Assembly: GCA_965207885.1 (NCBI GenBank)
Contig: OZ242311.1
Location: 3,392,001 to 3,456,000, forward strand
Length of the DNA stretch: 64,000 nt
From: Candidatus Latescibacterota bacterium
GTDB taxonomy: Bacteria > Latescibacterota > UBA2968
Direction of reading: 5' to 3'
Below, one piece after another: positions 52,613-63,573 of this stretch. Below the pieces are notes generated by a model. It saw only the letters and a program-made list of their open reading frames with translations, ran no database searches and was not told where the DNA came from. Within the stretch, counting starts at the first letter, position 1. Each line of letters starts with the position of its first letter. Made by a program: the position numbers and the translations under genes.

Positions 52613-53234
52613 CACAATTGCCAATCAATAAAATTTCGCCCGTGTTTTTGGCAATAATCACAAATGATAGGCAAAAAGACATCGGCATATTTCTCAAGTT
52701 TCACAGGACCGACACCGGAAACCCGTCCGAATGCTTCCACCGATTGTGGTAATTGGGCAGCCATTTCTCGCAACGTCCTGTCGTGAAAAACAACGAACGC
52801 TGGTACGTGTTCAGCCTCCGCTAACTCTCTGCGTTTAGTGCGAAGTTGCTCGAAAAGTTCCTGGCTATATTCATTTGATTCTTCGGATATTGTATCATGA
52901 ACAGGTTCTTCAGTTATGCGGTCTGCCGAATCCACAGGAAATCCCCAAAACTGCATTTTGCCTCTGTTCACCTCACGCCCATCAGGCCTCAGCTTGAGAC
53001 TGCCGTGTTGTAGGTCTCGATTAAGAAGTCCCTGTTGGAGGAATTGCAGTACCAGATGTTTCCATTGTGTTTTGTTATATTCCCTCCCAGTGCCATAGGT
53101 GGAGAGTTGGTGATGTCGGTTCTTAACAACCTTCTTTGCTTTTGAACCGAGTAATACATTGATAATATGCTCTACACCGAAAATTTGCTTTGTTTCGATA
53201 ACAGAAGAGAGGAATTTGCGAGCCGGATCTGTTA
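52612..53234 (-). pseudogene. recQ: 3' fragment of RecQ helicase (RQC + HRDC domains), 5'-truncated by IS
   Basis: The frame is open up to the IS edge: LTDPARKFLSSV...FGVEHIINVLLGSK...HHQLSTYGTG, then HRDC LFEQLRTKRRELA..VPAFVVFHDRTLREMA. Confidence 0.88.
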
Positions 53235-54171
53235 GGTAGTGTCTGAAAAGTAAGCTTTGAAGAGTTGTCTGATACAGGCCAGCTTGACCATAGTGAGAAA
53301 ATGAGTCGCCTTTTTTTCAAATCGGGTCACAATCCGTCGGCAGTGTTTAAGCCAACCAAAGAGACGCTCCACGATATTGCGTTTGGCATATAATCTTTTA
53401 TCACACTTAGGCCGTGGTCCTCTCTTACGCCGTTTTCTGCCTTTGGGAATCGCCTTGTTTGGGATAGCAGCCTTGATACCCCGTTTGCGTAGATAGACTC
53501 TGATGCGTGAGACATCATAAGATTTATCAGCTACCAGATACTTGGGTCGGTTTCTTGGACGCCCTCGTTTGGTGGGTATGCATACCTTTGACAGTAGCCT
53601 TTCAGCCTGTGTGGATTCTGACTGGTTACCAGGGAGAAGATCCACTGCTAAAGGATGCCCGACTGCATCGCAAAGAAGATGGATTTTCGTGGTCAAACCG
53701 CCACGAGAGCGTCCTAAAGCGTGATCTGGGGGCTCTTCTTCACCCTTTTTGCCCTTTTTTTTTCGCTCCTGCCGCGGCTTGTGTGGCTCGAATATGGGTT
53801 GCATCCATCATCCAGGTCGCATAATCTAAAAGACCATCTTCACCCAATTTGAGATGTAGCTTTTCTACAATGCGATCAAAGGTGCCATCCTGTTTCCATT
53901 TGCAGAATCGGTCAAAGGCTGTCTGCCAAGGACCATATCGTTCTGGCAGGTCGCGCCAAGCTGCACCTGAACACAATATCCAGAAGATCCCGTTGAATAA
54001 TGTACGATCATCCCGACGGGGACGACCCATCTTCTTCGGCGGTGGGAACAGGTCTTGGATCAGATGCCAAGCCTCGTCGCGCAGTTCATATCTCCGTTGC
54101 ATATCATACTCCTTGGTTTAGGGCGTATGCTGCAACTAAAATACATACTTTACGACTTTTCAGACACTACC
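53235..54171 (-). mobile_element. IS5-family (IS427-like) element, copy 1, 937 bp
   Basis: Terminal inverted repeats GGTAGTGTCTGAAAAGT, flanked by TA. orfA 53740..54102 and orfB 53232..53804. Confidence 0.95.
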
Positions 54172-55088
54172 TAGTTTTATTCCGCTGTCCGTCACTGGTG
54201 TACACAAAGACCCCAGCATGTACATCAACCACATAGAAGTGGTTGTTCATATACGTGATACCATACGAATTACTGTTGAATCTATCCGGATGGAAGCCTG
54301 AAGGTGCAATCCGCTGTCCGTTACTGGTGTACACAAAGAACTGGTCACGATTAGAATCAGCCACATAGAAGTGGTTGTTCACATACGTGATAGCCGTCGG
54401 CCAACTGTTGGAACCATGCAGATCGAATTCTTTAGTTTCGTCTCGCTGTCCAGCACTGGTGTACACATAGACCTTACCCTCGCTACCACCAAGCACATAG
54501 AAGTGGTTGTTCGCATACGTGATACCACTCGGATAACTATAACTGTTATCGATATCCAAATCGAAGGTCGAGGTTGCTGTGTTTGTTGGCGGCGTTCCAC
54601 CGTTAGAGGGCGGCACTTGACTGCCACCTATGGCAAGCGCATTTTCTATTGCCATACGCGAGGTTGGGACAGTGCCAGTTTTTCCAAAGTTATCAACGAG
54701 TAGCAGGAAATCTGCAACATTGACGTGCCCATCGTAATTGATGTCGCCGTCAATCGGCCACACAATCTGAAACGGATTAAGCGTATTCGTAGTTGAAGAC
54801 CGATTAAACACGATCTCATTACCAGAAGTGATTTCGTCGAAATTGTTGATATTCTCAACCAATTTAACTTTTTCAATCTCAATTTTAAACTCGCTATTCG
54901 CGACATTAACAAGCGTTGTAAACTCCGCCTTTGCCAGAAAGACATCCCCATTTGCTAAAGGGGTTAAAGGGTTTCCAAAAGTCAACGCTACGCCATTGGA
55001 GAGATTCACAGGAACAAATGTGTTTGGATTTTCTGCTCCCACATAAGTCAAAATGGGGCTGGATTTAAAAATGATTTCTACTGCACTA
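54172..55088 (-). pseudogene. internal fragment of a surface-protein gene (cohesin-like, dockerin/EF-hand, three ~40-aa beta-propeller repeats), cut by IS at both ends
   Basis: The frame is open from the copy-2 edge and stops inside copy 1. DGDINYDGHVNVADFLLLVDNFG, and three ITYxNNHFYV...VYTSxGQR repeats. Confidence 0.8.
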
Positions 55089-56025
55089 GGTAGTGTCTGA
55101 AAAGTCGTAAAGTATGTATTTTAGTTGCAGCATACGCCCTAAACCAAGGAGTATGATATGCAACGGAGATATGAACTGCGCGACGAGGCTTGGCATCTGA
55201 TCCAAGACCTGTTCCCACCGCCGAAGAAGATGGGTCGTCCCCGTCGGGATGATCGTACATTATTCAACGGGATCTTCTGGATATTGTGTTCAGGTGCAGC
55301 TTGGCGCGACCTGCCAGAACGATATGGTCCTTGGCAGACAGCCTTTGACCGATTCTGCAAATGGAAACAGGATGGCACCTTTGATCGCATTGTAGAAAAG
55401 CTACATCTCAAATTGGGTGAAGATGGTCTTTTAGATTATGCGACCTGGATGATGGATGCAACCCATATTCGAGCCACACAAGCCGCGGCAGGAGCGAAAA
55501 AAAAAGGGCAAAAAGGGTGAAGAAGAGCCCCCAGATCACGCTTTAGGACGCTCTCGTGGCGGTTTGACCACGAAAATCCATCTTCTTTGCGATGCAGTCG
55601 GGCATCCTTTAGCAGTGGATCTTCTCCCTGGTAACCAGTCAGAATCCACACAGGCTGAAAGGCTACTGTCAAAGGTATGCATACCCACCAAACGAGGGCG
55701 TCCAAGAAACCGACCCAAGTATCTGGTAGCTGATAAATCTTATGATGTCTCACGCATCAGAGTCTATCTACGCAAACGGGGTATCAAGGCTGCTATCCCA
55801 AACAAGGCGATTCCCAAAGGCAGAAAACGGCGTAAGAGAGGACCACGGCCTAAGTGTGATAAAAGATTATATGCCAAACGCAATATCGTGGAGCGTCTCT
55901 TTGGTTGGCTTAAACACTGCCGACGGATTGTGACCCGATTTGAAAAAAAGGCGACTCATTTTCTCACTATGGTCAAGCTGGCCTGTATCAGACAACTCTT
56001 CAAAGCTTACTTTTCAGACACTACC
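55089..56025 (+). mobile_element. IS5-family (IS427-like) element, copy 2, 937 bp, inverted relative to copy 1
   Basis: Same inverted repeats and identical ORF translations. orfA 55158..55520 (GAAWRDLPERYGPW). orfB 55456..56028 (GRSRGGLTTKIH, ADKSYD, RNIVERLF). Confidence 0.95.
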
Positions 56026-56027
56026 TA

Positions 56028-56565
56028 ATACACATGGACTCACCCTACCCCGTTCAATCAATGATGTTCTACAGGGCAGACAACCGGGAGCGAACAAAGA
56101 CATGCGGTCGCGGCATCAGGCATTTGGATTTCGCTTACATTACGATGCCACGCTTGTTTGGGGCGTGATCTTACAAAAGAGTTCGAATTACCGACTCTCA
56201 CCCCACCGTGGGTGAGAGAATATTTTCAGCCAGCTCTGGATCTCATTCGATATGCAGCGGGATTAGAAAAGAAAAATACAACAGACTTTTCTCTCCCCGA
56301 AGAGCCTCGACTGAAACTCCGCAAGTTGGCGCGGCTCGGCGTATTAGGTGGGGCTTGCCTCTTGATGGCACAAGGACGCTTTCGTTCGCTTAAAGGAGTT
56401 GACACAATACCAGTGCTAAAGGCGTCATATCCACAGTGGACCGACTTTCTCAATGAGACCGGAGAGTTGTATATCCACCTGGCGACATCTTCAAGTGAGA
56501 GGGTATCAAAATACCTTTCACAGCTTGTGAAGTGGATGGATTGGATAGAGGAAGAATTGAAGTAG
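56028..56565 (+). pseudogene. 5'-truncated hypothetical gene with an additional frameshift at a G4 run (~56160)
   Basis: The frame starts at the IS edge. ...DATLVWG joins RDLTKEF... if one G is added. Confidence 0.55.
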
Positions 56566-57287: not shown

Positions 57288-58214
57288 CTAAATCCCATCA
57301 GCTTTCTTCACCGCATCCAGCAGGGTATATCCACCCTCATCTACCGCAATCGAGCGCACCCCTCGATACTGGTCGTAAACCGCATTCATCTCATCCACTG
57401 AATCGAAATATCCCACCACGTATGCGGCTCCGACCGTGTCCCCTGCCGCCACCTTTCGACCGTGCAGTTCCTGGATGAAGCAGACATAACCCCGTTGATG
57501 ACACCATGCCTCGTACACATCCGCCGGATCCAGCGTCATCCCAGCCAGCCACACGGATGTGCCATCCTCTTGTCGTTGTTCGTATGCCCGGATAATCCGA
57601 TCGGGAATATCGCCCTCTTTTCGCTGGTAGAGAAATCCCTCATCAGGAGGGAAATCTGCCAGGAACTCTGAAGATTCAATATACCCGTGATAGCTCAAGT
57701 AAATTCGTGTAAAGGAGTCTCCGCCCTTGTGGTGCAAGTGGCCGGGCATGTCGATCCGGTAGAACAGACAGTCCGCGCTGTTGACACAATAAATCCGTTC
57801 ACTTGAAAGCACGTATCGCGTATCCGGCAGAAAGAGCAATGTCTGCTCCCACCGCGATCCGGCCTGGAAACCTTCAACCACGCTCGTGAACGTAAACCAC
57901 TGCCGCACAGCCAGAAACGCCTCACTCTGGATGACCTCATAATCCAACCGCTGTGCTCGCGTACAGATCTGGGGACCTTCCACGACGTGCTTGGGCAGAT
58001 TCCCGTCGTAGATCCGATTTGGCTCCGCATCTCCCCACTCCGGCACGAGCAGGAAGTCCATAATGTGCAGGCCCGAACCCAGATCGGTTACGCCAGTCCG
58101 TTTATCTACAAACGACCTGCTCTTGATCCCGCTTACATATCCCTCGGTCCGCACCGTCGCACAAAGATGCGGTGTTTCGATCTCGAGTTCCGCTCTGCGT
58201 TCGCACCGTATCAT
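57288..58214 (-). CDS. hypothetical protein (beta-sandwich-like), downstream of the candidate selenoprotein
   Basis: Long ORF with GGAG RBS. No family recognised. Confidence 0.7.
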   Translation of the reverse strand: MIRCERRAELEIETPHLCATVRTEGYVSGIKSRSFVDKRTGVTDLGSGLHIMDFLLVPEWGDAEPNRIYDGNLPKHVVEGPQICTRAQRLDYEVIQSEAFLAVRQWFTFTSVVEGFQAGSRWEQTLLFLPDTRYVLSSERIYCVNSADCLFYRIDMPGHLHHKGGDSFTRIYLSYHGYIESSEFLADFPPDEGFLYQRKEGDIPDRIIRAYEQRQEDGTSVWLAGMTLDPADVYEAWCHQRGYVCFIQELHGRKVAAGDTVGAAYVVGYFDSVDEMNAVYDQYRGVRSIAVDEGGYTLLDAVKKADGI

Positions 58215-58256
58215 TGTCTCTCCAAAAATGCGACAAAACACATCCCGACTATCAAA

Positions 58257-59537
58257 TCACGCATTAAAATACCATTCCAGGCCACCCCGTCTCTGGCACG
58301 CATCCGGCGCTGTGCGATCCCTCACCTCCAGTCCGGCAATCGTCATCGCAATCCCGATAGGTGCAGGCTCCAAATCGTCCTGCCGTACGTTGTAGTCCGT
58401 GCCACCCCATCGCGATCCCACCGCCACAACATCGAACCTCACGAACCGTTCCGTCCGCCGGTCAAAACGGAGATAACCCAACAGCGATGCATCCAGACCC
58501 CGTACCTGGCACGCGCCCTCGTACCAACTCCCCTCCGAGAACAGCTGCGCGGATCCGGAAAGCCTTAAATCAACCCATTCCGGTGTCTCCTCAGTCACCG
58601 TCAATGTCATAGCCGCATCCCGGATCGCCTCGGATGGCCACGAAGACGTTTCCCCTCGAACATAATCCGCCAGATGATAACGCACCAGCCGTCTGACCAG
58701 CCCATCGGGCATGGGGATAACATCGCCCACAGCCGCATCCGGTGGAACCATAGCCAGCACCTCTTCCCGTCGAAACCAGACGTAATCCTGATTGTGCGCC
58801 TCTCGCTTCATTCCCGAAGGCCGCGTATCCACCTCCCGGGGCAGATCCCGAACGCTCAGGTGTAAAACCAATCCGTCTTCAGGATACCCCGTCCAGCTAA
58901 ATGTGGGATCCCGATACGCCAGATCTGCGATTTCCAATGCCTCGTGCTGGGTCTTGCGGTTATCCCAATTCTCCAGCGCCCGTCTCAACATCCACAAAAA
59001 TCGGTCTGGATCGCTACCCACACCATGGACCGAGACCTTGCCTCCCGGAAACAGCCTATTGCGACTACCCAACACTTCCCCCCCTGCCGTCACTGCATAT
59101 AAACCCTGATGATTCAGCCCGTGATCGATATCCTCCAATCTGGCCTGTGCTTCCTCAAAAGAATATCCGTACCTTCCCTGCCAGGAGATCAAGCGCAAAA
59201 ACCGGCCCTCATCATCGGCTTGTCGCTGCAACCGGGTATTGTTTACAGCCACCGGGATAAACCGTTCGTTCAAAAACTCGATCACACGCGGATCTGAAAA
59301 AACGAGCGCACGGCCCGTAACCCCGTTATTTCACGTACACCCCAGGGGATGGCCGTTCATCGCCCAGATAAACAGTGGCTTCTCCTCGCGCGCCGCCTTC
59401 TGTCGCCCCTCCCAGAGTTCTCCGATCCAGGGGATATCTGTCCACCCTTCCTTTTGGGGCCGGCAGGCTTCGAACAACGCCTCAAATGTCTCGTCCGTCA
59501 ACGCCGGAGCGGGATTTGTTATCTCTTTGGGTGCCAT
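58257..59537 (-). CDS. candidate selenoprotein, 426 aa, thioredoxin-like N-terminal domain with C-T-U (Sec69)
   Basis: ORFs 59331..59537 and 58257..59285 are in the same frame, separated only by TGA at 59331-59333: PLFIWAMNGHPLGCT-U-NNGVTGRALVFSDPRVIEFLNERFIPVAV. Confidence 0.78.
59295..59333 (-). promoter_or_regulatory. putative bacterial SECIS element
   Basis: UGAAAUAACGGG-GU-UACG-GGC-CGUG-CG-CUCGUUUUUUCA folds into a long stem with a G-starting apical loop about 16 nt after the UGA. Confidence 0.6.
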
Positions 59538-59635
59538 AACACACCTCCGTGTTTCTTCGGGTGAAAATTGATCGCAGTTTAAAAGAATAAGTCAACAATC
59601 GTTCAATCTCTCCCCTGTACGAAAAAAACAAGAGA

Positions 59636-59663: not shown

Positions 59664-59811
59664 CGCAAATATGATACATAAAATCAAGAGAAGATCATTA
59701 GTAAAATCCATGGTCATCAAACTTGATTTGTCTATGTTTGTAATCTAAATTTGTTTTATTCCGTCTGCTATTTGGCCTGAAGGTAGCCGCTTGTTAACAC
59801 AAGGAGTATGG

Positions 59812-61512
59812 ATGAAACTCTGTACTAGAATCGCTCTATTCTTCTGGGTATTCTATATCGGAATCTGGTGCCAGGAGGTGCAATTTGTGGAGGTATCTGT
59901 CCAGGCTGGTATTGACTTCATCCATGTCAACGGAGCCAGTGGCAGGAAGTACGAAGTAGAGACAATGGGCCCTGGCTGTGGGCTATTCGATTACGACGGC
60001 GACGGCGATCTGGACATCTACCTGATCAATGGCGCACCGCTGCCGGGCTATCAGACAACGGTGATACCGACCAACCGCCTTTACAGAAACGATGGAGAGT
60101 GGCGGTTTACGGATGTGACGGCAGTATCAGCAACGGACAATCCGGGCTACGGTCTGGGATGTGCGGTGGGAGATTACAATAACGATGGGGACCTGGATCT
60201 TTACGTGACCAACTTCGGCCCCAACATGCTTTACCGCAATGAAGGCAACGGAACCTTTGCAGATGTGACCACCCGGGCTGTCGTGGGGGATGCACGCTGG
60301 GGTAGTACCGCGATGTTCCTCGACTATGACCGGGACGGAGACCTGGACCTCTATCTGGTCAACTACATCGATTGTACTCTAAAAAACGATAGAGACTGCA
60401 GAATACCCGGCACAACTACGCTGGGCTATTGCCACCCGGATATCTACCCTGGGGTCCCGGACGTGCTCTACCGAAACGAAGGAGATGGAACCTTTACAGA
60501 TGTAACCCGCGAGTCCGGCATCTACCGTTCGGGAGCGAGAGGACTGGGCGTGGTGGGCACCGACTACGACAACGACGGAGATCTGGACATATATGTGGCC
60601 AACGATTCAATGGAGAACTACCTCTTTGCCAATCTGGGCGACGGAACATTTGAGGAAATCGCCCTGCTGTCCGGCGTGTCATTCAACGAGAGGGGCCACG
60701 CCGAAGCGGGAATGGGAGTGGATATCGCGGACGTAGATGGAAACGGCTATTCGGATATCCTGATCGGACACCTGGCGACGGAGACGAATACCCTCTACCT
60801 GAACAACGGAGATGAAACATTTACGGATGCGACCAAGACAGCGGGCCTTGCCACGACACTGAATGACCTGACATTCGGACTGGTCTTCTTAGATGCGGAC
60901 AACGATGGAGATACCGATGCCTTTGCCGCGAACGGGCATGTCCTGGACAACATCGAGCTTATCTCCGACGCGTCTCCCTACAAACAGCGCAATAAGCTCT
61001 TTGAAAATACGGGCAATGGGCAATTCGCGGATGCTTCGGCACGCTTTGGCCCCGGCTTGAGCATTCTCAAATCGAGCCGGGGAACCGCTGCGGGGGATAT
61101 CGACAACGACGGCGATATCGATCTGCTGGTAGCCAATGTCGCCGATCGGCCAGATCTGCTGAGGAATGAAGGAGGCAACCGGAATAACTGGCTGATGGTG
61201 AGACTCATTGGAGGAGAAAGTGTTCCGGAAGTAAAGAAAAACTCGAAACTTTCCAATCGAGATGGAATCGGAGCGCAGGTAACCGTAATATCCGGCGATC
61301 TGCGGCAGGTAAAAGAGGTACACAGCGCAGCCAGCTACCAATCGGCCAATGATCTGAGATTGCACTTTGGATTGGGAAAGTGGAAACAGATAGACCTCGT
61401 AGAGGTCCGATGGCCATCGGGAAGAGTGGATCGAATCGCAGAAACATCTTCCAACAAAATACTGGTGATCAAAGAAGGGGAAACCATGCCTGTATCGAGG
61501 ACGCAGGATTAG
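59812..61512 (+). CDS. CRTAC1-family FG-GAP repeat protein with ASPIC/UnbV domain
   Basis: Repeated DYDxDGDLDxY motifs. NRDGIGAQV, SYQSANDLRLHFGLG, VRWPSG. Confidence 0.93.
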   Translation: MKLCTRIALFFWVFYIGIWCQEVQFVEVSVQAGIDFIHVNGASGRKYEVETMGPGCGLFDYDGDGDLDIYLINGAPLPGYQTTVIPTNRLYRNDGEWRFTDVTAVSATDNPGYGLGCAVGDYNNDGDLDLYVTNFGPNMLYRNEGNGTFADVTTRAVVGDARWGSTAMFLDYDRDGDLDLYLVNYIDCTLKNDRDCRIPGTTTLGYCHPDIYPGVPDVLYRNEGDGTFTDVTRESGIYRSGARGLGVVGTDYDNDGDLDIYVANDSMENYLFANLGDGTFEEIALLSGVSFNERGHAEAGMGVDIADVDGNGYSDILIGHLATETNTLYLNNGDETFTDATKTAGLATTLNDLTFGLVFLDADNDGDTDAFAANGHVLDNIELISDASPYKQRNKLFENTGNGQFADASARFGPGLSILKSSRGTAAGDIDNDGDIDLLVANVADRPDLLRNEGGNRNNWLMVRLIGGESVPEVKKNSKLSNRDGIGAQVTVISGDLRQVKEVHSAASYQSANDLRLHFGLGKWKQIDLVEVRWPSGRVDRIAETSSNKILVIKEGETMPVSRTQD

Positions 61513-61551: not shown

Positions 61552-63573
61552 CTAAAGCCGGTGGACCATGTGGCCCTGCTCGGGAAACCATATCAAGTCA
61601 ATGAAGAGCGATAACACGACACCCAGGACATAGCCGACGAGCAGGCCCAGAAATAGGGGTCGGGATTTCTGGTACGAGGATGCTCCCCCTACCTTTACGG
61701 TAATCCATCTGATCAGCCAGGCTACGAGAATCGTCAGGCTCGTCCGTCGAGCGAGGAAGGAGCCTGAAATGGTGAGACCCACCGGATGAAGAGGCCACCA
61801 CGGGAACCGACGCCTGAGCAGGAAGAGCAACGCGGTAGCCAGCGCGCCGAGCACAAAAAAGGCAAACTGGTCAGGATGCTCTATGAAGATCGGTGCATCG
61901 GTATCCTGCATCAGAAAAGATCTGACGGATTTCGCGGTGCGATCGTAGTGCGGATTGCCGGATCTAATGGCCACCCAACCTGTGAAGTTCAGTGCGCCGT
62001 GTCGATAACCCAGATAAAGTGTCACCAACACGCATGTGACCACACTCGTCACAAAAGCCAGAAAAACCGCGCCTGTGAGCTGTCGCCGGCTTTCCACCTG
62101 CACACCCTCAGCCACCCGTCCGGCCTGACTGAGAGCGGGTAAGAAGGATCCCTTGAAATTGGACAACAGGACGCCCGAGGTCCGTGCAGCTACCCGAGTG
62201 CTCGCGTGGATGGATTCTCCATCCAGAAAGGGACTTACCAGCCCCCATCCTCCCCAAATGGGGGCGTTGACATAAGGCAACCCCGTATCGGATAGGATTC
62301 TCGCCAATCCCAAATAGGTGAAGATCGCCCCAAAGATCAGCAGTACCGCCTGAAAAGGATCGAATCCGATCCGGACCAACCAGACCCAGATGTAGATCAG
62401 GCTGATAGCCAACCCTGCAACAGCCGTGCGGTAGGAGAGCGGTTCGTCCCTATCGTCAACCGGGGCCTGGGGGTCAAGTGCCTTCCAAAACACATCTCGG
62501 ATCTGCGAACGCGCCGCCCAGGTGGTAGAAAGCACCAGAAAGAAAAAGGCTCCCTTCGTCTGCCAGGAGCAGACCCCCGAGTAGTAATAGGGCGAAGTAG
62601 CCACAAATCCGATCCGGTTGAGCAGGCCCCCTTCGAGAATAAAGAGCAAATCGAAAAACCAGATGCTAAACAGAACTTCCACAGTTGCGAAATAGGAAAA
62701 GCAGATAGTAAAAATATCGAGGATGCCGTAGATAGGCGGAAAATTTCGATCGATCCAGATCCATCGCCCACCCTGGTGTGCCGCACTGCCCTGCGCGTAG
62801 ATGGGGAATTGGGGAAAGGTAGGAATGAAGTAGTTGACACAGTTCCAGGCGATCATCCCGAAGACTATCCAGAAGCCAATCCAGAAGAGGGTATTCCGCG
62901 TGAATGCCGGGAGAAACCCCTTTCCGTCTCCCGGGTGGGAGGCCATTTCGACCAGTGGTGCCATAGCCGGAAAAGCCACTTTTTCGTAGTGTATCCACTG
63001 TTTGCGGAAGATGGTGGTGACGCAGGCATAAAGGACAAAAGCGGCAAGTGTCAATCCACCCCACCAGAACAGGGGTAAGATCCACTTCCCCCACGGCAAT
63101 TGCGCGCCCCTGGGAAGTCCCTCCCAGAACCAGGTCACCGCTTTCTCTTCGTTTTCGGGAAACAGCCACTCTGCAATGTAGGGATGCAGATAATTGGCCC
63201 ATTCGTTTTCACCCGTGGCGAAGTAGTGCGGCGCGCCCATGTAGGAAATGAGGTAGCCGGAATACCCGTAGAACAGAACCGCTGCTCCGACTATTCCCAT
63301 CGCCAGAATCGTATGCCATTCTGAGGGCGACAGTGCCCGCCTCGTTCCACGCGCAACAACTGCTCCGACCAGGAGCATCAGGACAAAACCGATTAGCACG
63401 ACCATTGGCACATGGCTATAAGCCATCATTGGGCCGCGGGGGAGCAAGTATTTCACATGGATAGCCAGCACATCAATACCGACGACCAGGCCGAGGCCGA
63501 GAAGTACGGCGCGCGTCATGGGTCTGGTTCTTTCGGGAGAGTCAAGTTGCCCGGAAGGCTCTTGCATGGCCAT
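61552..63573 (-). CDS. polytopic membrane protein, DUF6785/DUF6784-type putative transporter
   Basis: Many TM helices. RKQWIHYEKVAFP, WWPLHPVG, RPLFLGLLVG motifs. Confidence 0.75.
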   Translation of the reverse strand: MAMQEPSGQLDSPERTRPMTRAVLLGLGLVVGIDVLAIHVKYLLPRGPMMAYSHVPMVVLIGFVLMLLVGAVVARGTRRALSPSEWHTILAMGIVGAAVLFYGYSGYLISYMGAPHYFATGENEWANYLHPYIAEWLFPENEEKAVTWFWEGLPRGAQLPWGKWILPLFWWGGLTLAAFVLYACVTTIFRKQWIHYEKVAFPAMAPLVEMASHPGDGKGFLPAFTRNTLFWIGFWIVFGMIAWNCVNYFIPTFPQFPIYAQGSAAHQGGRWIWIDRNFPPIYGILDIFTICFSYFATVEVLFSIWFFDLLFILEGGLLNRIGFVATSPYYYSGVCSWQTKGAFFFLVLSTTWAARSQIRDVFWKALDPQAPVDDRDEPLSYRTAVAGLAISLIYIWVWLVRIGFDPFQAVLLIFGAIFTYLGLARILSDTGLPYVNAPIWGGWGLVSPFLDGESIHASTRVAARTSGVLLSNFKGSFLPALSQAGRVAEGVQVESRRQLTGAVFLAFVTSVVTCVLVTLYLGYRHGALNFTGWVAIRSGNPHYDRTAKSVRSFLMQDTDAPIFIEHPDQFAFFVLGALATALLFLLRRRFPWWPLHPVGLTISGSFLARRTSLTILVAWLIRWITVKVGGASSYQKSRPLFLGLLVGYVLGVVLSLFIDLIWFPEQGHMVHRL

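Follow-up and report, generated by a model that had tools for sequence, protein, structure and literature searches.

A predicted selenoprotein with a thioredoxin-like domain, encoded across an in-frame UGA in a Latescibacterota genome

In the window analysed here (the whole stretch of 64,000 nucleotides, positions 3,392,001 to 3,456,000 of contig OZ242311.1 from a Candidatus Latescibacterota bacterium), two adjacent open reading frames of the minus strand are very probably one gene, in which an internal TGA encodes selenocysteine within a thioredoxin-like active site. We put the probability that positions 58257..59537 hold a single gene for a 426-residue selenoprotein, with UGA69 predicted to be decoded by means of SelB and a SECIS element, at roughly 0.88. 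The gene occurs in several bacterial phyla, is uncatalogued, and is usually mis-annotated. The refuting conditions listed in the preliminary description were each examined, directly or by approximation, and the selenoprotein reading withstood them.

The reading frame and its homologs

The two reading frames, one of 68 codons (59537..59331, TGA included) and the other of 342 (59285..58257), lie in a common frame. The preliminary description had taken the TGA for the only interruption between them, and this was borne out: translation of 59537..58260 with TGA read as U gives 426 residues, and the only internal TGA is codon 69 (59331..59333). The residues preceding it are ...KPLFIWAMNGHPLGCT (ending in GHPLGCT) and those following it NNGVTGRALVFSDPRVIEFLNERFIPVAV, so that the site as a whole reads HPLGCTUNNG. 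As read directly from the sequence, a ribosome-binding site, GGAGG (59544..59548, minus strand), stands 7 nt 5' of the ATG at 59537, while no such site stands in front of the GTG at 59285, with which the 342-codon frame begins and which falls within the hairpin region discussed below. The gene is terminated by another TGA (58259..58257), and its orthologs in the extracted loci terminate at the same place by TGA, TAA or TAG; hence TGA is used as a stop codon in these genomes.

The internal TGA occupies the same alignment column in every homolog that spans it. Within the phylum, all 47 matches spanning codon 69 (40-95% identity; five further ones are fragments without coverage of this codon) contain exactly one TGA, and all of them in this column, as do 29 of 29 extracted loci. 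Other assemblies contributed 80 loci, which carry the labels of six or more phyla (Latescibacterota, Gemmatimonadota, Chloroflexota/Thermomicrobiales, Poribacteria, Planctomycetota, and Armatimonadota); 79 of them agree, the single exception being a broken copy. Both flanks are strongly conserved, which speaks for coding sequence on either side: W32, W37, W42, P54, W58, A59, M60, N61, G62, P64 and C67 are invariant upstream of the TGA, and N70, N71, G72 and R76 downstream of it.

The family is large: the homolog search retrieved 1833 cluster representatives at E <= 1e-3. Among 268 database homologs, 194 start not more than 30 residues after the position of selenocysteine, and the active site is thus absent from most public protein records of the family. 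Only 21 database homologs cover the site. Seven of these (P0132, P0140, P0152, P0167, P0185, P0206, and P0227), all of them full-length single proteins, carry Cys, the residue anticipated in the preliminary description; 12 carry Ser, Asp, Ala, Arg, Gly or Asn (Arg being found in one 81-residue fragment and in one full-length homolog), and two, P0054 and P0057, carry Trp. Residues other than Cys had been named beforehand as evidence against selenocysteine. Cys homologs do exist, while non-redox residues or Trp stand at the site in the other 14 proteins. It follows that the position is not essential across the superfamily, and that the wider superfamily is not uniformly redox-active. In a quick tree the selenocysteine forms do not make up one clade; Cys and other forms are nested among them, and at least five label changes are needed, two of which are forced by starred branches.

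Fold and predicted active site

The protein was modelled by AF2 as a whole (pLDDT 82) and as the N-terminal domain alone (pLDDT 88). The models predict a thioredoxin-like N-terminal domain (about residues 25-200; 58938..59465, minus strand) and a beta-rich C-terminal domain (about residues 215-426; 58260..58895, minus strand). The order of elements in the former, beta-alpha-beta-alpha-beta-beta-alpha, is seen in both models, and all its leading Foldseek matches are thioredoxin-fold proteins of the DsbH, AGR, DsbD-gamma and UAS types (3ira, 9i3u, 3ph9, 3f9u, 7tkv, 2dlx, 2ju5, and 2fwg), with probabilities of up to 1.00, TM values of 0.41-0.64, and modest E-values from 1.4e-3 for the best match to 7e-2. 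These data support the thioredoxin-fold reading first proposed from the sequence around the TGA. Sec69 is placed by the model at the N-terminus of helix 1 (residues 71-80), in the loop that connects this helix with strand 1 (residues 55-60), although pLDDT falls below 50 at residues 68-74 of the whole-protein model. The TGA thus splits the predicted fold, strand 1 being encoded upstream and helix 1 downstream of it.

At the level of sequence, no Pfam model matched the window's protein at E <= 1, and the thresholds of Thioredoxin_7 and Thioredox_DsbH were not reached; among 12 relatives, weak matches (E about 2e-3) were obtained with Thioredox_DsbH (PF03190) in two and with Thioredoxin_7 (PF13899) in two. 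The C-terminal domain, described at the outset as large and not recognised, remained so, with no match in Pfam or NCBIfam and none in the PDB by Foldseek or profile: the whole model retrieved nothing from the PDB at E <= 1e-3 (the highest-ranking rows, with TM of about 0.1, were unrelated beta-barrels), and the search of PDB sequences with the family profile gave two chance-level rows only.

By analogy with its structural relatives, the N-terminal domain would belong to the DsbH/Thioredoxin_7/AGR type, with Sec69 at the place of the attacking Cys of CxxC. Cys67, two residues ahead, is likely to form with it a selenenylsulfide redox couple, which would act on a thiol, a disulfide or an oxidised substrate. 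In the model the C-terminal domain packs against the N-terminal one, and it probably serves in binding a substrate or ligand. No signal peptide, hydrophobic or transmembrane segment, or EF-hand was found in the window's protein, and, given the absence of a signal peptide, this copy is probably cytoplasmic. Many relatives look exported, and in some the same two-domain module forms the portion of membrane Ser/Thr kinases that lies outside the cytoplasm.

The hairpin, its proposed decoding, and other explanations of the TGA

A SECIS-like hairpin was found 3' of the UGA (59302..59318, minus strand), with a 6-bp stem, ACGGGC/GCUCGU, and a 5-nt loop, CGUGC; its stem starts 12 nt and its loop 18 nt after the UGA. 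RNAalifold predicts it independently. In an alignment of 24 sequences the stem is paired in 100% of cases, with double changes in three pairs; in a set of 53 sequences 92.8% of the cells are paired and double changes are present in all six pairs, the covariation amounting to 0.649 as compared with 0.318 in shuffled alignments (none of 500 shuffles scored as high). These compensatory substitutions alter the encoded amino acids (ACG..GUU pairs with GUG..ACG, and GGC..CUC with CGC..CGC), and synonymous variation among 13 orthologs is 0.061 in codons 70-82 against 0.188 gene-wide.

The published bSECIS criteria comprise a loop of 3-9 nt, a stem of 4-16 bp, a G in the first two loop positions, a UGA-to-loop distance of 16-37 nt, and an MFE <= -7.5. 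The hairpin has a loop of 5 nt, a stem of 6 bp, a G within the first two loop positions, and a spacing of 18 nt. Its energy is borderline: -7.0 kcal/mol for the hairpin alone, which is short of -7.5, and -10.5 when the hairpin is enforced in 45 nt, so that it passes in context only. The signal came solely from the comparative analysis. The single-sequence MFE fold of the window uses another upper stem (ACGG/CCGU), its z value is 0.57, and 137 of 200 shuffles fold equally well or better. The stem-loop announced in the preliminary description is therefore present, but the upper stem drawn there is not supported, and the comparative data favour ACGGGC/GCUCGU instead. We also considered a lower stem of 5 bp, between alignment columns 15-19 and 42-46, and dropped it, pair 16-45 being unpaired in 15 and pair 18-43 in seven of 24 sequences. 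The preliminary description had proposed a likeness to the E. coli fdhF SECIS, which may or may not extend to the stem supported here. The Rfam scan of 59150-59450 returned chance-level rows only.

The genome encodes all four components of the selenocysteine machinery that were looked for (selA, selB, selD, and tRNA-Sec). Profile searches retrieved selB with 386 bits, selA next to it with 575 bits, and selD with 369 bits, all above the curated cut-offs; selA and selB contain no internal stops, selD carries a TGA of its own, and tRNA-Sec(tca) was located beside it by aragorn. Among carrier genomes of the phylum, selA is present in 41 of 42; since 131 of the phylum's 168 genomes have selA anyway, finding it together with the gene counts as weak evidence. 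As to the mechanism, established SelB/SECIS biology leads us to propose that SelB with Sec-tRNA(Sec) would bind the hairpin beginning 12 nt past UGA69, whose stem has 6 bp and whose loop, CGUGC, has G-U in positions 2-3. Selenocysteine would in this case be inserted at UGA69 instead of termination, and translation would proceed to the second TGA (58259..58257), behind which there is no such hairpin.

The TGA might, in principle, be a true stop after 68 residues, separating two genes, with the hairpin and a U run acting as an intrinsic terminator or attenuator and the GTG at 59285 serving as the second start. Indeed, in the window the hairpin precedes a U run, a terminator scan flags 59318..59302 followed by TTTTTCAGAT, and for the 194 homologs mentioned above, public gene calling has yielded only the part behind the TGA. 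However, the U run is not conserved though the stem is, the tails in other clades being GUUUUCCG, CUAUUCAG or CUUCAGC; the frame is maintained across the TGA in all spanning homologs; strand 1 and helix 1 of the thioredoxin fold lie on its opposite sides; and the GTG lacks a ribosome-binding site. Two RNA libraries, both from a single study, contain contigs that run across the UGA and the hairpin, although such contigs can contain DNA and come from relatives that are 90-99% alike. Finally, the Cys homologs exist as full-length single proteins, contrary to the suggestion that homologs might always be two separate proteins. All this makes separate genes very unlikely. Recoding of the UGA as Trp, Cys, Gly or another residue independently of selenium, by near-cognate decoding or an alternative code, is quite unlikely as well. 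The Trp in P0054 and P0057 and the Arg in the 81-residue fragment and in one full-length homolog could be taken in its favour; the Trp calls, though, are most simply explained by a metagenome gene caller that applied code 4 to the TGA. Against such recoding stand the use of TGA as the terminator of this gene and of its orthologs, the complete selenocysteine machinery in the genome, and the conserved hairpin of SECIS geometry 3' of the UGA.

The chance that the stop reflects a pseudogene or an assembly error is next to nil. One relative (G086; L037/L067) is truly broken, only residues 1-36 and 199-426 being left, but a TGA in the same column, between strongly conserved flanks, has been retained by over 100 independent assemblies, even where identity is as low as 35-40%, and its occurrence in so many assemblies excludes a sequencing error, another objection raised beforehand. 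By these comparisons the pseudogene or error explanation appears effectively refuted. In the comparison with reads, no difference was seen at 59331-59333 among the 40 differences listed, there being 127 further ones. A single selenoprotein gene thus remains the reading that we prefer.

Relation to known selenoproteins and genomic context

The predicted protein resembles bacterial thioredoxin-fold selenoproteins whose decoding depends on SelB and an in-frame SECIS (selenocysteine-containing Trx, Grx and Prx-like proteins, and the CxU-motif "thioredoxin-like selenoprotein Sec.1" of Table 1 in PMC13188914) in having an in-frame UGA and a hairpin in the coding region. It also shares with them the position of selenocysteine at the N-terminus of helix 1 and a nearby Cys as the likely resolving partner. 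It differs from the catalogued families in that neither PF13192 nor another of the Pfam or NCBIfam models linked with them gave a match; in addition, the family motif is G-C-[TV]-U-N-N-G rather than UxxC or CxxU, and, unlike in known thioredoxin-fold selenoproteins, a beta-rich C-terminal domain of roughly 210 residues is always attached. Structurally, the N-terminal domain is most alike to the DsbH/Thioredoxin_7/DsbD-gamma/AGR2-AGR3/UAS class, from which it is distinguished by a longer active-site loop with C-x-U as opposed to CxxC or CxxS. No match to the protein was found among the 119 families that the 2026 catalogue lists (PMC13188914, in the portion accessible to us), and together with the lack of a fitting Pfam or NCBIfam model this agrees with the initial impression that it belongs to no classical selenoprotein family. 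The sole curated model that touches it is VPGUxxT type 2 (NF041383; "OS_HP5"), residues 34-104 being aligned to profile positions 4-70 with 19.3 bits and E 6.9e-4. Membership was rejected, as the score is far below the curated cut-off of 275 and the site, HPLGCTUNNG, has no VPGU motif. The weak match recurs in three of 12 relatives, and searches of the window's genome and of five other carrier genomes for true NF041383 members gave sub-threshold rows only.

A possible link leads to animal selenoprotein N (SELENON). When the Cys homolog P0132 was used as query in a search by language-model features, a "Selenoprotein N" cluster ranked second (score 0.91, 193 of 256 features shared), but this match was not recovered with the N-terminal domain alone. 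SELENON, according to published descriptions, has a thioredoxin-like domain, an adjacent Cys-Sec pair (SCUG) with an Arg a short distance behind Sec, and an EF-hand. The window's family has, likewise, an invariant Arg seven residues after Sec, and an EF-hand is present in the relative P0255. On the other hand, C and U are adjacent in the SCUG so described and separated by one residue in GCTU, and the window's protein has neither SCUG nor the N-terminal transmembrane anchor nor the EF-hand of SELENON. It is conceivable, although we consider it doubtful, that the family is a bacterial counterpart of SELENON, i.e., a selenocysteine-containing thioredoxin-like module with a sensing or binding domain, widespread in Latescibacterota, Chloroflexota, Planctomycetota, Armatimonadota, Poribacteria and relatives, and attached also to membrane Ser/Thr kinases and at least once to an EF-hand. 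A laboratory working on selenoprotein N has reportedly discussed a SelenoN-like protein from a Poribacteria symbiont. In the literature available to us we found no account of the family or of a bacterial selenoprotein N homolog; supplements, such as S9 of PMC4807772 with selenoprotein candidates of Planctomycetes, may list related genes.

If the link with SELENON is true, its biochemically obscure redox domain would gain numerous prokaryotic relatives, among them Sec, Cys and inactive variants, that lend themselves to study in tractable systems, and the short list of selenoprotein families common to bacteria and animals would be extended by one; for the present, the family offers a concrete candidate lead to a prokaryotic relative of selenoprotein N. 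Even without it, this is a large predicted selenoprotein family missing from Pfam, NCBIfam, and the accessible part of the 119-family catalogue. The family is a prediction, and discoveries of new selenoprotein families in bacteria are fairly frequent; still, annotation routinely cuts selenoprotein genes in two, and recognition of the present one would restore a C-x-U thioredoxin-like active site to hundreds of protein clusters in several mostly uncultured phyla, sponge-associated lineages included. The variants that nature provides (Sec, Cys and non-redox), together with the kinase-fused sensor forms, may help to learn what selenium adds.

Downstream of the selenoprotein gene and on the same strand lies a hypothetical gene (57288..58214, minus strand), which has no Pfam or NCBIfam match. 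Co-transcription of the two, supposed in the preliminary description, is possible, as the 42-nt gap between them holds no terminator-like site and one RNA-library contig bridges both; yet the neighbour is not a conserved partner, its homolog being found beside the gene in only five of 79 loci. The survey of these 79 loci revealed no partner common to different phyla and no functional clue. The largest neighbour cluster is that of short-chain dehydrogenases (19 of 79 loci, mostly from one genus-level clade), and DUF6785/DUF6784 neighbours occur at seven loci, all of them in Latescibacterota.

The in-frame UGA and its conservation

The gene at 58257..59537 (minus strand) is, with a probability that we put at about 0.88, a genuine, conserved and mis-annotated selenoprotein gene; this reading is carried by the conservation of the UGA, by a hairpin with SECIS geometry that is likewise conserved and shows covariation, by the genomic selenocysteine (Sec) machinery and by the existence of Cys homologs. 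Just as the preliminary description had it, the ORFs of 68 aa (59537..59331) and 342 aa (59285..58257) lie in a common frame of the minus strand, and translation of 59537..58260 with TGA read as Sec yields 426 residues with a single internal TGA, codon 69 (59333..59331), which stands after ...KPLFIWAMNGHPLGCT and before NNGVTGRALVFSDPRVIEFLNERFIPVAV. A GGAGG sequence is located 7 nt 5' of the ATG at 59537 (minus strand), and the genome (6.23 Mb, one contig) harbors a single copy of the gene. The true stop of the gene is TGA too; the orthologs end at the same position by TGA, TAA or TAG, and TGA is therefore an ordinary stop in the genomes carrying them.

The gene was matched in 45 of the 168 genomes of the phylum. 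Exactly one TGA was present in all 47 rows spanning codon 69 (40-95% identity), the remaining five of the 52 match rows being fragments or a broken copy not spanning this codon, and the TGA occupied the identical column in 29/29 extracted phylum loci. A scan with one genome per species, biased toward the subfamily of the window's gene by one of its three search patterns, located just 5' of the TGA, gave 210 relatives, and in the best 80 of them, which were retained, the TGA was aligned to codon 69 in 79 cases, the lone exception being a broken copy. The record labels of these 80 include Latescibacterota, Gemmatimonadota, Chloroflexota/Thermomicrobiales/Thermoflexus, Poribacteria, Planctomycetota, and Armatimonadota. 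The proposal that homologs should keep TGA at codon 69 with conservation on both sides is thus borne out: W32, W37, W42, P54, W58-G62, P64, and C67 are invariant 5' of the TGA and N70-G72 and R76 3' of it, the family motif being WAMNG[HND]P[LIVF][GAS]C[TV]-U-NNG[VI].

Within the genus, the copy of one genome (G086; loci L037/L067) is broken: it retains only residues 1-36 and 199-426 and has lost the Sec codon together with most of the thioredoxin domain. Two other genomes of the genus possess a second TGA-bearing paralog, 65-66% identical to the first and separated from it by about 20 kb (G082:C1:3319853-3321178, locus L064, and G089:C1:5974137-5975459, locus L059), with a DUF6785/DUF6784 gene directly 3' of it; such a gene is also found near the gene in the window (61552-63573).

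As to the Sec machinery, for which selA, selB, selC, and selD had been named as the genes to be sought, selA, selB, selD and tRNA-Sec(tca) were all found in the same genome. There selB (386 bits) adjoins selA (575 bits) at C1:4303107-4306366, apart from selD (369 bits; C1:5699073-5700198), which contains an in-frame TGA of its own and is located next to the tRNA-Sec gene. A full-length TGA copy occurs in 42 genomes of the phylum, and selA accompanies it in 41 of them, being absent only from an assembly of 80% completeness; this co-occurrence is weak evidence, since selA is present in 131 of the 168 phylum genomes anyway. Most database homologs (194/268) start no further than 30 residues past the Sec position, a hallmark of gene calls that were truncated, and 53 start further downstream. 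The 21 homologs that cover the site have Cys (7), Ser (4), Trp (2), Asp (2), Ala (2), Arg (2), Gly (1) or Asn (1), so that the anticipated Cys occurs in one third of them. Both Trp homologs retain the exact Sec-type motif, and their Trp probably represents TGA translated under code 4.

The hairpin downstream of the UGA

Folded as a single sequence, the window's region is no more stable than shuffled sequences (z = 0.57; 137 of 200 shuffles are at least as stable), and Rfam contains no match to it. The alignment of 24 distinct sequences, analyzed with RNAalifold, yields a prediction of one 6-bp stem (59318..59313 with 59307..59302) closed by a 5-nt loop CGUG[C/A]. All six pairs are formed in 24/24 sequences, and three of them exhibit double changes (GC 12 / AU 11; CG 14 / UA 10; GU 17 / CG 6). 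When 53 distinct sequences from all phyla were considered, 92.8% of the cells were paired, double changes were seen at 6/6 pairs, and the covariation score was 0.649 vs 0.318 in shuffles, with 0/500 shuffles as high and slid controls not exceeding 0.168. Constraint on the protein alone is a poor account of this pattern, because the encoded amino acids on the two sides of the stem change together with the compensating substitutions (e.g., Thr..Val to Val..Thr, or Gly..Leu to Arg..Arg). In addition, synonymous differences among 13 close orthologs amount to 0.061 over codons 70-82 vs 0.188 in the whole gene.

With a 5-nt loop, a 6-bp stem, G-U at loop positions 2-3, and 18 nt from the UGA to the loop, the hairpin fits the published bacterial SECIS model; the energy is borderline (-7.0 kcal/mol for the isolated hairpin and -10.5 within its sequence context, the criterion being -7.5). 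In members from Planctomycetota and Armatimonadota the stem is extended or shifted by ~4 nt. A lower stem below the 6-bp hairpin was also considered and rejected, being poorly supported by pairing in the alignment of 24 sequences. In the window the hairpin precedes a U run and was flagged as terminator-like by a terminator scan; this run is not conserved outside the window. Low synonymous variation (0.017-0.06 vs 0.188 gene-wide, 13 orthologs) was also noted at codons 171-178 (59016-59039), a long way from the SECIS.

Protein architecture and relation to known selenoproteins

The gene very probably encodes a bacterial selenoprotein of thioredoxin fold, with the SECIS in frame and an unusual architecture. 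The AlphaFold2 model of the whole protein (20 sequences) has pLDDT 82 and pTM 0.82; the N-domain (approximately residues 25-200) modeled alone (37 sequences) has pLDDT 88. In the model, the secondary-structure elements of residues 55-192 are ordered as in thioredoxin (strand, helix, strand, helix, strand, strand, helix), and Cys67 and Sec69 are situated in the loop right before helix 1 (71-80); the predicted fold is thioredoxin-like, and Sec takes the place of the nucleophile in it. The leading Foldseek matches of the N-domain are all of thioredoxin fold (DsbH, Thioredoxin_7, AGR2/3, DsbD-gamma, UAS), which gives modest support to this fold assignment (best E 1.4e-3, TM 0.41-0.64), and weak Pfam matches to Thioredox_DsbH and Thioredoxin_7 were each obtained for 2/12 relatives. 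The C-terminal beta-rich domain (~215-426) had no match in Pfam, NCBIfam, Foldseek PDB or a PDB-sequence profile search. We propose that Sec would be inserted at UGA69 in a SelB-dependent way, that Cys67 and Sec69 would form a selenenylsulfide redox couple, and that the C-domain could be involved in substrate binding or sensing.

In four representatives the module is preceded by a Ser/Thr kinase domain and a single hydrophobic helix, and is predicted to form the extracytoplasmic portion of a membrane kinase; other relatives add a PQQ-type beta-propeller, a SecDF head domain or a C-terminal EF-hand. Most of the fused relatives (database homologs P0125, P0143, P0152, P0162, P0255, P0139, and P0206) are without Sec or Cys at the site. 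By eye, signal-peptide-like N-termini are seen in many members from Planctomycetota, Armatimonadota, and Poribacteria; inspection of the window's protein revealed no signal peptide.

Pfam contains no match to the window's protein, and its only NCBIfam match, NF041383 (VPGUxxT thioredoxin-like selenoprotein type 2), scored 19.3 bits vs a cut-off of 275, which rules out membership and reflects a distant likeness of the thioredoxin part. In the part of the 2026 review covered here, none of the 119 prokaryotic selenoprotein families with domain identifiers (Table 1, PMC13188914) corresponds to it, and the portions covered of the deep-Sep and BSepDB papers do not mention the family; we did not find it in current curated resources. 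The family may be linked to animal selenoprotein N (SELENON): when the ESM Atlas was searched by features, with the Cys homolog P0132 as query, a eukaryotic 'Selenoprotein N' cluster ranked second (score 0.91, 193/256 shared features), a match that was not reproduced with the N-domain of another homolog, P0054, alone. According to the portion of the literature covered, SELENON contains an SCUG motif in a thioredoxin-like region, Arg four residues past Sec, and an EF-hand. In the present family the motif is C-x-U, an invariant Arg stands at +7 from Sec, and one member possesses an EF-hand.

Occurrence in sequencing runs and neighboring genes

Public runs labelled as sponge metagenome contain the stretch 57288-59600, and in one of them a 3581-nt contig covers the whole gene with 49 differences in 1678 bases, so that the organism may live in association with sponges. 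In two RNA libraries, both from one study, contigs extend across the UGA and the hairpin; this is consistent with the site being transcribed and proves nothing on decoding.

The gene neighborhood provides no clue to function. The divergent neighbor (59791-61512, plus strand) encodes a 573-aa FG-GAP/ASPIC-UnbV repeat protein with no evident link to the selenoprotein. Two DDE transposase ORFs of 190 aa with identical Pfam scores (53232-53804, minus strand, and 55456-56028, plus strand) are inverted around an NHL-repeat gene (54167-55051) and may constitute a composite transposon or be a single insertion sequence present twice.
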